A DNA stretch of 63,115 nt, filler included, from Octopus bimaculoides (taxonomy: Eukaryota), in the NCBI RefSeq assembly GCF_001194135.2. It is 7 parts of 6 records of this genome, joined end to end, with 100 filler letters (N's around TTAATTAATTAA, not from the genome) between each part and the next. Parts side by side here need not be neighbours in the genome. Positions count along the whole stretch, not along the records: positions 1 to 13,320 come from NC_069004.1; positions 13,421 to 18,346 come from NC_068982.1; positions 18,447 to 23,291 come from NC_068982.1; positions 23,392 to 25,005 come from NC_069008.1; positions 25,106 to 50,459 come from NC_068997.1; positions 50,560 to 60,672 come from NC_068989.1; positions 60,773 to 63,115 come from NC_068986.1. One strand, written 5' to 3'. Positions within the stretch are counted from its first letter, which is position 1; each line of letters begins with the position of its first letter. Made by a program: the position numbers and the translations under genes. This document shows, one piece after another, positions 9,807 through 61,229 of this stretch. The notes under the pieces were generated by a model that worked only from the letters and a program-made list of their open reading frames with translations, ran no database searches and was not told the DNA's origin.

Positions 9807-9896
9807 GCTAATCCTGATGAGAATAAAGTTATATAATTGATTTGTTACGTAACATTCCATTGTAGTCTTTACGTGAAATCAATTGGTAAGATCAGC
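9807..9896 (+). ncRNA. Degenerate type I hammerhead ribozyme-like motif downstream of the PLE RT
   Basis: GCUAAUC-CUGAUGA...GAAA-UC-AAUU-GG-UAA-GAUCAGC. Stem I pairs 6/7, there is one extra A at the cleavage site and stem II is weak. Confidence 0.4.
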
Positions 9897-10224
9897 CATG
9901 GTGAATATTTAATACTATACAATTCGGATTATATATATATATATATATATATATATATATATATATATAACAAATAAGTATATGCATATATATGTACAGG
10001 TATGTGCATACCTACGTCTAGGTGCATATCTAGGTACAGGACATGGCAAACAAAACGTAGACAAAAAAATGATAATAACCAGAGTACAGAACACACACAG
10101 GCCACATAGAGAACATTTTCCTTCATCAGCTACCTCCATTCTAACTGGCGTTTCAAAGAGTAGGGCAGGATGCATCGTTAAAATATATATATATGTATGT
10201 ATACGCTATGTGTGTGTGTCATTG

Positions 10225-10390
10225 TGTCTGTGCTTGTCACTCCATCATCGCTTGACAACTGGTGTTGGTGTGTTTATATCCCTGTAACTTAGATTGGCAA
10301 AAAAGACTGATAGAATAAGTACTAGGCTTAAAAAAAAAAAGTTCTGGGGTCGATTTGTTTGATTAAGATTGTTCAAGGCGGTGCTCCACT
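10225..10390 (+). mobile_element. SINE 3' module (family C tail)
   Basis: CATCGCTTGACAACTGGTGTTGGTGTGTTT...GATAGAATAAGTACTAGGCTT...GGGGTCGATTTG...AAGGCGGTGCTCC. Confidence 0.75.
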
Positions 10391-10801
10391 ATTAAAATTT
10401 ACTGAAAAGCATCAATGAATGTGAGTGATAGAAAAGGAAGGTAGTCATGGGATGTGCTAGAAATAACTACCAAATCTCCCTTAAATCACACCTTTTTGTC
10501 TGAAAATATCTATAAAAAGTTCCTCCCATAGTTTTTAAATATGTAGTGCCCTCCCATTGCTTTTAAGTATGTCGTGCCGAAAATGTTGGCCAAAATTGGT
10601 CCAGGGCTGGGGAAGTGAGATGAAAACAAATTCATGAATTTTCAGAAGTCTTTTTTCATAAAAAATATGTCCCTCATCATTTCAAAGGCTGTGGTGAAAA
10701 AGAAAAATTGGAAAAATCCACATCAAAATTAACAAAATTCAACTTACGTGGGCATCTTGATCTCAATATATATATATATATATATATATATATATATATA
10801 T

Positions 10802-11830
10802 GAAGGGATGTCTAAAAGTAACCGGAAACATTCTCTGTGGGACAAGCCCATTGTAGTTCAGGCTTCCATCGCTAGAAGTCACTTAATGCAATCCTCAGGC
10901 ATCAGTATGCCAACTGCTGTCGTCGAGTGTAATCTTACTATCNNNNNNNNNNNNNNNNNNNNNNNNNNNNNNNNNNNNNNNNNNNNNNNNNNNNNNNNNN
11001 NNNNNNNNNNNNNNNNNNNNNNNNNNNNNNNNNNNCTATCACGTGGTATGTCTTTACTTTGCAATGCTTCTGCCTTGTTCATCGATTTTGCAATGGTTGA
11101 AATGAAGGAACAGTGTGCTTCCATGAAATTCTGTTTTCTAGTGGGGAAATCGGCAGCCAAAACAGTTGACAAAACAAGTTTATGAGTGGTTTTCACGCTC
11201 TAAGAATGGTCACTTGTCGCTTGAAGACCAACCTTGTTCAAAGTATCTTATTTCTTTATTGCCTACAAGAGGCTAAATATAGAGGGGACAGACAAAGGGA
11301 TTAAGTCGATCACATCGACCCCTGTGCGTAACTGGTACTTAATTTATCGACCCTGAAAGGATGAAAGGCAAAGTCGACCTCGGCGGAATTTGAACTCAGA
11401 ACGTAGCGGCAGACAAAATACTGATAACCATTTCGCCCGGCGTGCTAACGTTTCTGCCAGCTCGCCGCCTCGTTCAAGGCATATGTCAACCTCCCGAACG
11501 AGTGAAAACATCATGAAAATTCATGAAGTGACCTTGGAAGACCATCACCAAACAATTGGCAAACTTGTTGATATGACTGGTGTGTCCTGGAGCTCTTGCC
11601 AATGAATTCTGAGTGAAGAATTGCAAATGAAAAGAATTCCAGCAAAATTTGTGCCTCGTTTGTTCACGGAAGATCAAAAGCAGTCGCAACTGAATGCATG
11701 TTATGAACTGAAAGAACAGTTGGAAATTGGTTCAGACCTATTTTTTTAAGGTCATCATTGGTGACAAAAGCTGGTGCTACAAAATTTGCAGATGTGGAAC
11801 AGGTAAAGAAAAAAAACACAATGTAGGCTA
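10802..11830 (+). pseudogene. Mariner-type transposase remnant, interrupted by a SINE and internally deleted
   Basis: KEQCASMKFCFLVGKSAAKTV, VYEWFSRSKNGHLSLEDQP, ILSEELQMKRIPAKFVPRLFTEDQK, VIIGDKSWCY. A TIR-like GAAGGGATGTCTAAAAGTAACCGG follows a TA run. Confidence 0.85.
11247..11467 (-). mobile_element. tRNA-derived SINE (family B), full length, with target-site duplication
   Basis: The reverse complement starts GGCGGCGAGCTGGCAGAAACGTTAGCACG and has B-box GAGTTCAAATTCC. It is flanked by CCTTGTTCAAAGTAT (11232-11246) and CCTCGTTCAAGGCAT (11468-11482). Confidence 0.9.
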
Positions 11831-12344
11831 AATGCAAAACTGGCACCAAGCCAAAAATTTTTGAAGTACTTGCATGTGTGTATGTGTGTCACATAATTAG
11901 ATGGATGTTGACTCTCTTGAGTTCATACACCCTTTGGTCATTCTTGTATTTCATATTAAACAATGTCATTCTGAAAATAAGCAACCACACCATCAAAATC
12001 TCAAATCTACAAGATGATGAGCTAATGGGTTAAGCCAAAGAGCTTAAATACTTACTGCACGGTTTTCCATTTTTCTGCTAATTTACTGCAGAAACATACA
12101 CCATTGAAAGGCATCAAATAATAAATAAATAAATAACAAAGAATTAAAAACAAAATCATTTTAATTGACAGAAAATAAAATAGGTTTCTTTTAGTAATTA
12201 ACAAAGATTGTTTTGCTGAAAAATATCTGCAAATTTGGACAAAATGAAAATATTTGCATTAGATTTCATATTTTAGTTTGTTTTCTTTATCCTGAAAATT
12301 TTCTAAAAAAATCTAGTAAAAATTTATAAATAATAATAATCCTT

Positions 12345-12555
12345 TCTACTAAAGGTACAAGGCTTGAATTTTTTTGGGGGAAGGGGACTAGTTGATTACA
12401 TCGACCCCAGTGTTTCACTGGTACTTAATCTATCAACCCTGAAAGGATAAAAGGCAAAGTCAACCTCGGTGGAATTTGAACTTGGAATGTAGTGACGGGC
12501 AGAAAACCAATAAGCATTTTACCCGGCTTGCTAACGATTTTGCCAGTTCACCACC
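12345..12555 (-). mobile_element. SINE family B
   Basis: CATCGACCCCAGTG...GGTACTTAATCTATCAACCCTGAAAGGATAAAAGGCAAAGTCAACCTCGGTGGAATTTGAAC; homologous to 11247-11467. Confidence 0.85.
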
Positions 12556-13052
12556 TTATTATCAATAATAATAATAATAAGAAGAAGAAGAATAAGATTC
12601 AAATTTTGGCATAAAGCCAGCAATTTTAGGGGAAGGGATAAATCGATTTCTTTCAACCTAGTATTTGATTAGTACTAGTTTTACTGAGCCTAAAAGGACG
12701 AAAGCTAAAGTCAACCTCAGTGGAATTCGAACTCAGAACGTAGAGATTCAAATGAAATGCTACTGGGGCATTTTGTCTGATACACAAGCAATACTGCCAG
12801 CTTGTTGCTTTAATAATAAAAATGATAATAAAATCACAAAAGTGAAGAGCCTATCGCTTTGCATATATATATCTCTGGAATAAATTGTCGGCTATTGGCA
12901 AATGTAAATGCCATATATAGATACTAGAGCAGGAACGAAGTGTGTACGCATGCGTGTGTGTGTGCGTGCGCGTATAAATGTAAACAATTTTTTTTTTTAT
13001 TAGAAGCGTCGAAATGTGTATTGCATGATACAAATAAGATTTTTGTTTATTT

Positions 13053-59395: not shown

Positions 59396-59399
59396 TGAT

Positions 59400-59520
59400 G
59401 AGCAAGGGGGAAGTCAATTACATCGATCCCACTACTTGACAAGTACTTTATTTTATCGACCCTGAAAAGATCGACCTCGGCGGAATTTGAACTCAGAACG
59501 TAAAGACGGACGAAATTGCA
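59400..59520 (-). mobile_element. SINE family B fragment
   Basis: CATCGATCCC..TTTATCGACCCTGAAAAG..GACCTCGGCGGAATTTGAACTCAGAACGTAAAG. Confidence 0.8.
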
Positions 59521-60000
59521 CAACCACCACCAATGATGTTGACGATGATGATGATAATGATGATGATGATGATGATGATGGTGATGGTGGTGTCTATCGT
59601 TGCCGATGTTGTTCGAATGAAAAGCCCCAACCCCTCCTTCAGCCCTGTAGAAGAAGAAGAAGAAGAAGAAGAAGAAGAAGAAGAAGAAGAAGAAGAAGAA
59701 GAAGAAGAAGAAGAAGGGAAGGAGGAGGACATATTACAGAGTGAAAGAAAAACAAAGTTAACGAAAAGCTAAGAGAAGGGAGAGAATGAATGAGTTTGAT
59801 GAATGAAAACAAAGAGACAGACAAACAGATAAGGTGTGTGTGTATGTGTATAGATATGCATGTATGTATGTATGTATGTATGTATGTATGTATATATATA
59901 TATATATATAAATACATACATATATATATAAATACATATATACATACAGACATATATGTGTGTGTGTGGAATTTTCAGGACATTTATAAAGAGAAAGTTA

Positions 60001-60048
60001 GTCTTACAGCTGTTTCTGGGACATTAGGGATATCCCTTCATCAGAGAC
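60001..60048 (-). ncRNA. Minimal type I hammerhead ribozyme, apparently intact
   Basis: GUCU-CUGAUGA-A-GGGAUA-UCCCUAA-UGUCCC-A-GAAA-C-AGCU-G-UA-AGAC; stem I 4/4, stem II 6 bp, palindromic AGCU loop, GUA site. Confidence 0.85.
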
Positions 60049-60271
60049 GATGTGAGAATAGTTAAATAAAGAGAAATATTAGAGTTTAATGTTAGGAGTT
60101 ATTTTGGAAAAGGAAGGAAATATATGTAGGATGTTACACAACTATAACATCCTACTTACATTTTTCTTTTTATTCTCTTATTTACCTTTATACTTTTTAT
60201 TTCCATCCTTTTCTAAAATAACACCTTATATTGAACTCTAATATTTCCCTCTATTTAACTATTCTCACATC

Positions 60272-60319
60272 GTCTCTGATGAAGAGATATCCCTAATGTC
60301 CCAGAAACAGATGTAAGAC
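60272..60319 (+). ncRNA. Minimal type I hammerhead ribozyme, two substitutions
   Basis: GUCU-CUGAUGA-A-GAGAUA-UCCCUAA-UGUCCC-A-GAAA-C-AGAU-G-UA-AGAC; core intact, one stem II mismatch, loop palindrome broken. Confidence 0.75.
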
Positions 60320-61229
60320 TAACTTTCTCTTTATAAATGTCCTAGAAATTCCACACAGCCTTGGTTTTCTTGTCTTCTTTTATTTAACATATACATGCTC
60401 ATACAAGACCCGCACTAGATTCCTCACTCGCATTATTATCGAACCGAGAGTTTAACTACGGTCCTTTCAAAGCACTTACATAGCGTTAACTACCACCCTG
60501 GGTCTTCTGGATACCAATACTTCTCATATATATATATATACATATACATAGGAGAATTTACGAAAAAAACAACAACAGACGAGGACAGGTGGTGTAAACA
60601 ACAAAAGGATGTATTAGTTTAACGCTCGATAAATCTATATCTATCTATCTATCTATCTATCTATATATATATNNNNNNNNNNNNNNNNNNNNNNNNNNNN
60701 NNNNNNNNNNNNNNNNTTAATTAATTAANNNNNNNNNNNNNNNNNNNNNNNNNNNNNNNNNNNNNNNNNNNNACACACACACACACACACACACACACAC
60801 ACACACACACACACACACACACACACAATACATAATTCTATCAAAATATTTCTTATGGCGTTTTCTCTTTCCGCTTCAGTGCGATAAATATAGCCGTATT
60901 CCAAATGTCTGTCTCCATTTTCTCGTTGACTAAGTATAATCAATCACATTGATCATTGGCCAACAACGTCTATTGCAATGCAGGAAGTAGGAAATACTTG
61001 GGATGTTGTGGTGTTCATGCTTGTTTCAGGGATGTTGGCAGTAAGTGTAATGTGAAGTGGATCTAACCACAGATGATAAATAGATCATGGAGTTTAAACC
61101 AAGGGTATTACTGGTACTTATTTCATATGTGTTTAATAGTACACTGGAATGGACTAACCACGTGAAACGTTCATATTGCATTACAAAAATGAGGGATGTT
61201 GGTAGTGGGGTTGGTGAGTAAAGAAGATA

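Follow-up and report, generated by a model that had tools for sequence, protein, structure and literature searches.

The kind of ribozyme discussed here has been described since 2014, and one octopus example is by now known; among its closest described relatives are the hammerheads in the pseudo-long terminal repeats (pseudo-LTRs) of metazoan Penelope-like elements (PLEs), for which Cervera 2014 (PMC4209133) describes opposite-strand pairs 100-700 bp apart and a low activity of dimers paired through a palindrome. In the element descriptions of Craig 2021 (PMC8557442) and Li 2026 (10.64898/2026.07.22.740005), PLE insertions are mostly 5'-truncated; Craig 2021 gives inverted partner copies as their usual form and already tabulates an octopus PLE hammerhead, that of Hydra-1_Obim. 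In addition, the non-LTR retrozymes, with consensus lengths of 51-972 bp, have been proposed to be non-autonomous PLE derivatives (PMC7229834; 10.64898/2026.07.22.740005), and it is the thesis of Li 2026 that hammerhead repeats without an open reading frame (ORF) derive from PLEs, with dimers cutting in one of nine tested. Against this background we have analysed a stretch of Octopus bimaculoides DNA (NCBI RefSeq assembly GCF_001194135.2; 63,115 nt, seven parts of six records joined end to end), hereafter the window. It consists of animal repeat DNA, AT-rich and full of microsatellites, and includes 3,749 N; in it an earlier note had seen, at ten sites, a window-wide population of minimal hammerheads from about six unrelated families. 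Positions count along the whole window, and those cited for single hammerheads, apart from the flagged positions of the note, are of C3 of the core. In our view the motifs are likely to be type I hammerheads that belonged to 3' terminal repeats in a number of PLE families, mostly old and decayed.

Hammerheads in the window and the excess over chance

Type I hammerhead geometry is found at nine of the ten flagged sites, the exception being 29987, and these nine fall into six families (H, A, B, D, E and F) whose flanks are unrelated, with a best cross-family blastn E value of 0.075, so the figure of about six given in the earlier note stands. Its listing of 49702 apart from 25374/25877 does not, the two loci being 84% alike over 203 aligned columns and thus members of one family, A. 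The core (CUGANGA, GAAA and UH) is intact at 9814, 25431, 41682, 60044 and 60276, half of the flagged sites, and broken at 25883, 30502, 32350 and 49754; helices I, II and III are all able to form at 60044, 25431, 25883, 30502 and 41682, in part at 9814, 32350, 49754 and 60276, and not at all at 29992. A palindromic helix III, noted earlier for most of them, is present at most sites (CAGCUG, CUAG, CCGG, CGGCCG, AUAU, UUAA, and CAAUUG within UCAAUUGG) but missing from 41682, 60276 and 29992. The word minimal has to go for several of them, since the helix II region takes up 31-57 nt between the core boxes in A, H and D (perhaps also in G, a further candidate), and the strictly minimal GAAA-NN-UH form occurs at none of the window's sites.

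How far could chance account for such motifs? A first type I descriptor, asking for a strict core and a stem I of at least 3 bp, returned 7 loci against a mean of 0.66 and a maximum of 3 in 100 local dinucleotide shuffles. A structure-aware descriptor, composed after the sites had been seen and also run on 100 shuffles, gave two matches with an intact core, 60044(-) and 25431(-), against 0.01 (maximum 1), and five when as many as two mismatches in the core were allowed, against 0.77 (maximum 3). The published, strictly minimal descriptor geometry finds 0 sites in the window, and the same geometry widened to 2-8 nt before UH finds two, 60044(-) and 41682(-), against 0.013 in 300 shuffles; searches of the window with type II and type III descriptors of our own came back empty. 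CTGATGA by itself occurs 17 times, where shuffles give 8.1 +/- 2.8 and 0 of 200 reached 17. The predicted excess over shuffled sequence is thus there. That the motifs are nothing but chance matches in AT-rich repeat DNA is, for the set as a whole, an idea to which we give almost no credence: it has on its side the silence of Rfam and the readiness of loose descriptors to catch 31761, 55864 and 55029, and it is probably true for 29987 and perhaps for 4951, but it is at odds with the shuffle comparisons of 2 against 0.01, 5 against 0.77 and 2 against 0.013 and with the restoration of family A by its other copies, and we count it as already refuted for A and B. A hammerhead population does exist here, but mainly as decayed copies, so that the window-wide population of the earlier note survives at nine of its ten sites and well above shuffled sequence, mostly as remains.

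Eight further candidates (31761, 55864, 55029, 25853, 46352, 58543, 54857 and 40761) were dropped as chance-like. We also make no claim about density: two matches in 59,366 called bases would come to 34 per Mb against some 4.5 per Mb for the axolotl, with its 126,247 motifs in 28.21 Gb, a comparison with n of two in a window picked for its motifs.

PLE remnants and the family A unit

The closest tie between a hammerhead and a PLE is seen in family H. A broken, 5'-truncated reverse transcriptase (RT) of what is probably a Hydra-clade PLE lies at 8760..9561 (+), identified by profile hidden Markov model and by tblastn to homologs of about 710 amino acids; no endonuclease was recognised behind it. 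The marks of the clade (Craig 2021) are a DKT motif, an RWK motif and a C-terminal endonuclease with a CxCX5C linker, and the homologs have DKT and the endonuclease (DKT in 18 of 20 and exact RWK in 5 of 20 of those of at least 450 amino acids), parts that are missing from the window copy. By eye, with no tree, this RT is close to Hydra-1_Obim in the Craig 2021 supplement, and the alternative of a Naiad element is set aside in favour of the Hydra type on the strength of the homologs and that supplement. About 250 nt downstream of the RT, in what would be the 3' untranslated region (UTR) of the element, stands hammerhead H (9807..9896, +), whose core at 9814 is intact, with a 54-nt hairpin as helix II, UCAAUUGG as helix III, the site GUA (H17 at 9888) and a stem I that is one base out of register; a (TA)n run begins at 9930. 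Beside the truncated 5' side of the RT this 3' end recurs, inverted and itself 5'-truncated (8634..8760, -; 82% over 65 columns), with a one-sided tail of about 75 nt. The H tail includes a 16-mer that shares 15 of its 16 letters with the 5' start of Hydra-1_Obim (0.03 expected, for a motif picked after the match was seen), and this tail corresponds to the PLE tail as explained in Frangieh 2024, where it is the beginning of the next head-to-tail unit. The published 16-mer covering the core and stem II of Hydra-1_Obim has one match in the window, with 3 mismatches and 0.42 expected, which is not significant, and by its sequence the window element is a diverged sister family of Hydra-1_Obim. The inclusion of 9807 among ORF-less elements in the earlier note is therefore mistaken: the site forms the 3' terminus of a PLE, probably of the Hydra clade, that does bear an ORF, with the RT directly upstream.

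The note's count of two PLE reverse transcriptases is right, and there is a third PLE remnant as well. The second PLE is an ORF remnant with RT plus, at the C-terminus, a GIY-YIG domain (27133..28744, -; Pfam GIY-YIG 26.1 bits at a cut-off of 22.6; 49 homologs), lacking its N-terminus and of Neptune/Nematis type by its CX4CXXC linker; for the portion at 27133-28440 the only homolog assigned to a named species is from Octopus bimaculoides, with 60% identity over 63% of the query. No hammerhead was found at its 3' end before the gap. Some 125 nt upstream of the ORF, on the same strand, is arm C1 (28869..29032, -), whose outward-facing partner C2 (29982..30145, +) is the site flagged at 29987. 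The two arms are 79% alike, the likeness starting 10 nt before the core box, and they have only boxes, CUGAGGG...GAAA at 29022(-) and CUGAGGA...GAAA at 29992(+). Neither copy allows a stem to form, so 29987 is not counted as a hammerhead, against its earlier listing as one; the C arms may be a decayed terminal repeat of the second PLE. The third remnant, with Hydra-like RT and endonuclease pieces and an internal (TA)n run (38095-38843, -), is known from protein matches, and no hammerhead was recognised behind it.

Family A is a different matter, being the only one for which other copies could be compared. At its first locus, A1 (25585..26200, +; core 25883) comprises one unit of about 550 nt plus about 65 nt of the next unit's start, and the inverted arm A2 (25209..25600, -; core 25431) ends in (TA/TATG)n. 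The second locus (49532..50380, both strands) is made up of A3 (-), a 3' stub (+), A4 (+) and the start of the next unit. The copy at 25431(-) is near complete, with an intact core, GAAA CUAG UU (H17 at 25380), a two-part helix II of 35 nt and a stem I with one mismatch. At 25883(+) the stems are good (H17 at 25934) and the GAAA box is mutated to GAAG; A3 begins 1-2 nt before the core at 49754(-), having lost the 5' strand of stem I at the inversion junction as well as U16.1, and keeps a helix II shorter by 4 nt and the palindrome CCGG; A4 has lost the 5' half of its hammerhead to an internal deletion.

Public contig pieces from two DNA runs, matched at 80% likeness, numbered 1,529 and 1,606, most of them 90-95% alike; their summed depth was not treated as copy number, and what follows draws on 40 of the 119 rows of letters and 24 of the 389 rows of loose ends. 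In these pieces position 25928 is A in all covering depth (9 and 11 contigs), which restores GAAA; 25929 T>C and 25932 A>G, at 79-94% of depth, give the helix III palindrome CUAG; and in distal helix II two G-U pairs become A-U, through 25914 G>A (85-89%) and through 25916 G>A (36-39%). The majority letters of family A restore the core and stems, as the earlier note had proposed that a consensus should. In 18 and 13 contigs the loose ends at 25927 continue as A-CAUG-UU-UAC, which points to a second palindrome, at an agreement of only 0.65-0.66. A (TA)n run begins behind 26104 in 29 contigs of the one run and 23 of the other, and strand switches make up 6 of the 12 joints listed, with six different breakpoint pairs, each seen in one contig per run and so weak singly. 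Joints from 26125 to 25585/25598 recur in other copies with differing letters between; the head-to-tail joints are partly built into the reference stretch, which has the unit start twice, and they show tails, not long arrays. Li 2026 takes a tandem of at least two units with complete hammerheads as the mark of an active retrozyme; the window has partial tandems only, the contig pieces being too short for arrays.

By its sequence, then, family A is a multicopy unit of about 550 nt without a PLE ORF. At both loci the unit runs head to tail into its own start, which leaves no room for an ORF, and it has one type I hammerhead and no coding capacity, its longest stop-free frame being 91 amino acids; there was no PLE protein match, the probes being 199 proteins of two PLE groups, with Penelope/Poseidon and Naiad outside the sample. 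The claim of ORF-less hammerhead retroelements thus keeps its footing in family A, as far as the two sampled PLE groups go; it fails at 9807, and the remaining families could be truncated autonomous PLEs. Might A too be, like the others, the 5'-truncated terminal repeat of an autonomous PLE whose ORF lies outside the copies, so that there are no ORF-less families at all? This reading holds for 9807, PLE insertions are mostly 5'-truncated in Craig 2021 and Li 2026 as cited above, and the probes came from two PLE groups only; yet the return to the unit start after about 550 nt, at both loci and in other copies, together with the 91 amino acid limit, makes it for the families as a whole a serious but doubtful possibility. 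We would sooner regard A as a non-autonomous passenger of PLE machinery.

Is family A an actively expressed retrozyme with a circular RNA of about 550 nt, as in mussel and coral? The unit size and head-to-tail joints would fit, the family letters keep the ribozyme, and a few RNA reads do cross the tail-to-head joint (1-4 per listed joint). Two complementary DNA (cDNA) runs of one study, 6% of each being read, speak differently: family A matched 170 of 12.9 million records in one run and 190 of 12.0 million in the other, or some 13-16 reads per million, alike in both directions, 84-96% of these reads continue into unlike sequence, and depth over the hammerhead is at most 10. In addition, most DNA pieces are 5-10% diverged, and we think active expression improbable. 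The sparse RNA argues against a very abundant RNA in these libraries, in which poly(A) selection (not stated) would lose circles. An index of sequencing runs named no RNA run with family A, a result that weighs neither way. Places with A>G are more numerous in RNA (16 and 12) than in DNA (9 and 9), but as the individuals differ this is not read as RNA editing.

Inverted copies, fold-backs and the smaller families

Families B, D, E and F, and the candidate G, are each represented by one locus. Family B is a fold-back (59963..60400, both strands) with arms 93% alike and a tail of about 35 nt on the plus copy only; its 60044(-) hammerhead is complete, with CUGAUGA, a 7-bp helix II flanked on both sides by an additional A, GAAA CAGCUG UA and a 4-bp stem I, and 60276(+) has an intact core with both palindrome and helix II damaged. 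Family D (32270..32355, -; element ends not defined) is a decayed hammerhead at 32350, reading GGAA for GAAA (GGAA CGGCCG UA), with a 5-bp stem I and a weak helix II region of 57 nt in two hairpins. Family E (41643..41688, -), which reaches (TA)n at 41531 and runs upstream into an assembly gap, is a plausible hammerhead at 41682: its core is intact with an extra G after A9, helix II has 5-6 bp, the site is CUC (H17 at 41649), stem I is 3 bp followed by a mismatch, and GAAA GAAC UC is non-palindromic. Family F is a mini-insertion (30415..30574, -) with its hammerhead at 30458-30510, a tail of about 35 nt into (TA)n and a 17-nt inverted stub at 30522-30538; at 30502 the core is GUGAACA, two changes from the standard, and there are a 7-bp stem I, a 5-bp helix II and an AUAU palindrome. 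Candidate G (4886..4959, -; position 4951), beyond the first list and beside an assembly gap, is uncertain, having intact boxes and an 8-pair stem I (4 of them G-U) around a 41-nt helix II region that barely folds. No ORF was found near any of the five and no PLE protein match with the two groups of probes; a 5'-truncated tail of an autonomous PLE would look identical, so that ORF-less is unproven for B, D, E, F and G, and for B, D, E and F we give truncated autonomous PLEs an about even chance.

Where three loci had been described as inverted pairs there are six, each with a partner in opposite orientation: H, the two loci of A, B, C and F. No partner or tail was found at D and G, E and G bordering gaps; one-sided tails are seen in four families (H, A, B and F), and (TA)n-type or AT-rich repeats stand at the ends of H, A, E, F, C and B. 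A hammerhead lies next to a PLE RT at 9814 (RT only) and possibly at arm C. Several truncation or inversion points lie near the core box, 1-2 nt upstream at 49754-49756 and 10 nt at 29982/29032, and the inverted stub of family F joins about 20 nt upstream of it. All this fits the ordinary pattern of PLE insertion, in which inverted pairs would be scars and not devices.

The alternative is that the fold-backs are selected structures making self-cleaving or regulatory double-stranded RNA (dsRNA). Their hairpins are indeed very stable (arms 90-93% alike over 136-350 nt; -545 and -245 kcal/mol), and read-through would yield dsRNA. A fold-back transcript, however, holds one sense hammerhead and an antisense copy, and in an equilibrium model without kinetics all four modelled transcripts (A and B, both strands) have 95-98% of the ribozyme paired to the far arm and the core fully paired. 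Core-breaking changes in the arms, inversion breakpoints that vary among copies and the match to the described PLE insertion structure also tell against selection, which we hold to be very improbable. Dimer cleavage needs two same-strand copies, which are found together at no locus here, so a fold-back would yield no cleaving dimer. Of what the earlier note foresaw, hairpin RNA from these loci is possible, and self-cleaving dsRNA is not supported by the model, in which the antisense arm buries the ribozyme.

The PLE reading that we favour suggests the following course of events. The PLE RT-endonuclease would nick AT-rich DNA, and RNA would be copied from just inside the next head-to-tail unit, giving the tail; copying would usually stop early and an inverted second copy be added, and the hammerhead would survive because it is near the 3' end. 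In the source RNA, two same-strand hammerheads would associate through their helix III palindromes, and their cleavage after UH would be weak and perhaps aided by a PLE protein. Family A would ride on this machinery in the manner of a non-LTR retrozyme, and the fold-backs would be dead ends of insertion, their ribozyme blocked by the antisense arm.

A number of results weigh against this account and have to be set beside it. Only two of the ten sites, 60044(-) and 25431(-), keep core, palindrome and all stems, and among the seven strict-core loci 31761 and 55864 are chance-like and 9814 was accepted in the wrong register. The Rfam check went against expectation, with no hammerhead among 146 matches at E<=10 in the scan of the window. 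The boxes at 29992(+) and 29022(-) come without a helix II (0 kcal/mol) and with neither palindrome nor stem I. The dimer context is unseen, as at no window locus do two complete hammerheads lie on the same strand, and no sequence common to family A and the ends of either PLE was detected. Families B, D, E, F and G have one locus each, other copies having been compared for A only. To this must be added the sparse family A RNA and, where the note had looked for RNA ends at the predicted site, the finding that no RNA molecule ends at 25934/25935, at a depth of at most 10 in the two runs, which is too low to be decisive.

The surrounding repeats deserve a brief mention. Those resembling short interspersed elements have an octopod look. 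Two small (TA)n-ended repeats, 9975-10180 (-) and 42115-42340 (-), have GAAA some 20-25 nt upstream of a CUGAUGA-like box, a permuted order that by eye recalls the 'HHR_half_core' at Naiad 3' ends in Craig 2021; no fold was found in them by our own type II/III descriptors. By self-blast, short palindromic elements, like miniature inverted-repeat transposable elements or inverted short interspersed elements, lie at 6854-7022, 29349-29548, 6304-6503, 13015-13221 and 52409-52748, and 1-4750 is taken up by a (CGTT/CGTA)n satellite, long, degenerate and strongly AT-skewed. The C-terminus of a non-LTR retroelement, with several C2H2 zinc fingers by Pfam, is at 23787-24779 (+), an element we take to be RTE-like. 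Broken remnants identified by eye only are Ty3/gypsy-like at about 46540-48060 (+), L1/Tx1-like at about 34900-36000 (-) and mariner-like at about 11040-11780 (+), the L1/Tx1-like one flanked by a direct repeat of about 1.15 kb (32744-33902 / 36275-37424; 77% alike).

Novelty, meaning and the known systems

The families appear to be undescribed in the literature searched, though Lunse et al. 2016 (RNA Biol) may already cover such variants. Cephalopod retrozyme or hammerhead reports were not found in that literature except for Craig 2021, and the main text of a 2026 O. vulgaris repeat annotation (PMC13282606) has 0 mentions of ribozyme or hammerhead. What may be new is the helix II of 31-57 nt in three or four families, forms that neither Rfam nor the published descriptor picks up, and the alternative dimer palindromes within A. 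One could go much further and propose that PLE-type hammerheads whose helix II is long or branched (31-57 nt) are present in the octopus in large and so far uncounted numbers, missed by Rfam and the published descriptor and several-fold denser than reported for other animals, with A as a very abundant ORF-less PLE parasite whose subfamily palindromes (CUAG, CAUG, CCGG) would give subfamily-specific dimer cleavage and a simple self/non-self code among retroelement RNAs; we offer this as a speculation that is rather unlikely to hold in full.

At the least, octopus families are added to a known phenomenon, and inverted hammerhead pairs are to be read as insertion scars. If the forms with long helix II cut, animal hammerhead censuses undercount and descriptors need widening, and the alternative palindromes of family A on one scaffold would offer a test of like-copy dimer cleavage and of the function of PLE hammerheads.

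How, then, does the window compare with the systems described? As presented in Frangieh 2024 (PMC11167929), the Poseidon element PAc of Anolis is alike in its tail by internal initiation, its AT-rich targets and the lack of RNA-seq ends at the hammerhead site; its hammerhead has been tested and is protein-assisted and dispensable for insertion in vitro, whereas the octopus sites are known from sequence. The non-LTR retrozymes, as characterised in PMC7229834 and Li 2026, share with family A the absence of an ORF, low GC, head-to-tail units and one type I hammerhead; unlike them, A is dispersed, with inverted truncated partners and no array of two complete hammerheads seen, and it has no abundant RNA in the two runs, in contrast to the abundant mussel retrozyme circles. 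The Hydra-clade PLEs of PMC8557442, Hydra-1_Obim included, match the window in RT type, (TA)n target, 3'-end hammerhead, inverted truncated copy and tail, although the helix II region of Hydra-1_Obim is 22 nt against 54 nt in H and the 3' UTR differs; long helix II loops do have a precedent in two spike-moss PLEs in the table of that paper. The metazoan PLE pseudo-LTR hammerheads, in the description of PMC4209133, are searched for with a 3-7 bp stem and 3-10 nt loop, which A, H and D (and G) exceed with their 31-57 nt. In other respects these and the window's sites are alike: type I with a short stem I and a palindromic helix III, an extra base after A9 and optionally before G12, and many unrelated families per genome, present mostly as solo copies and as opposite-strand pairs.

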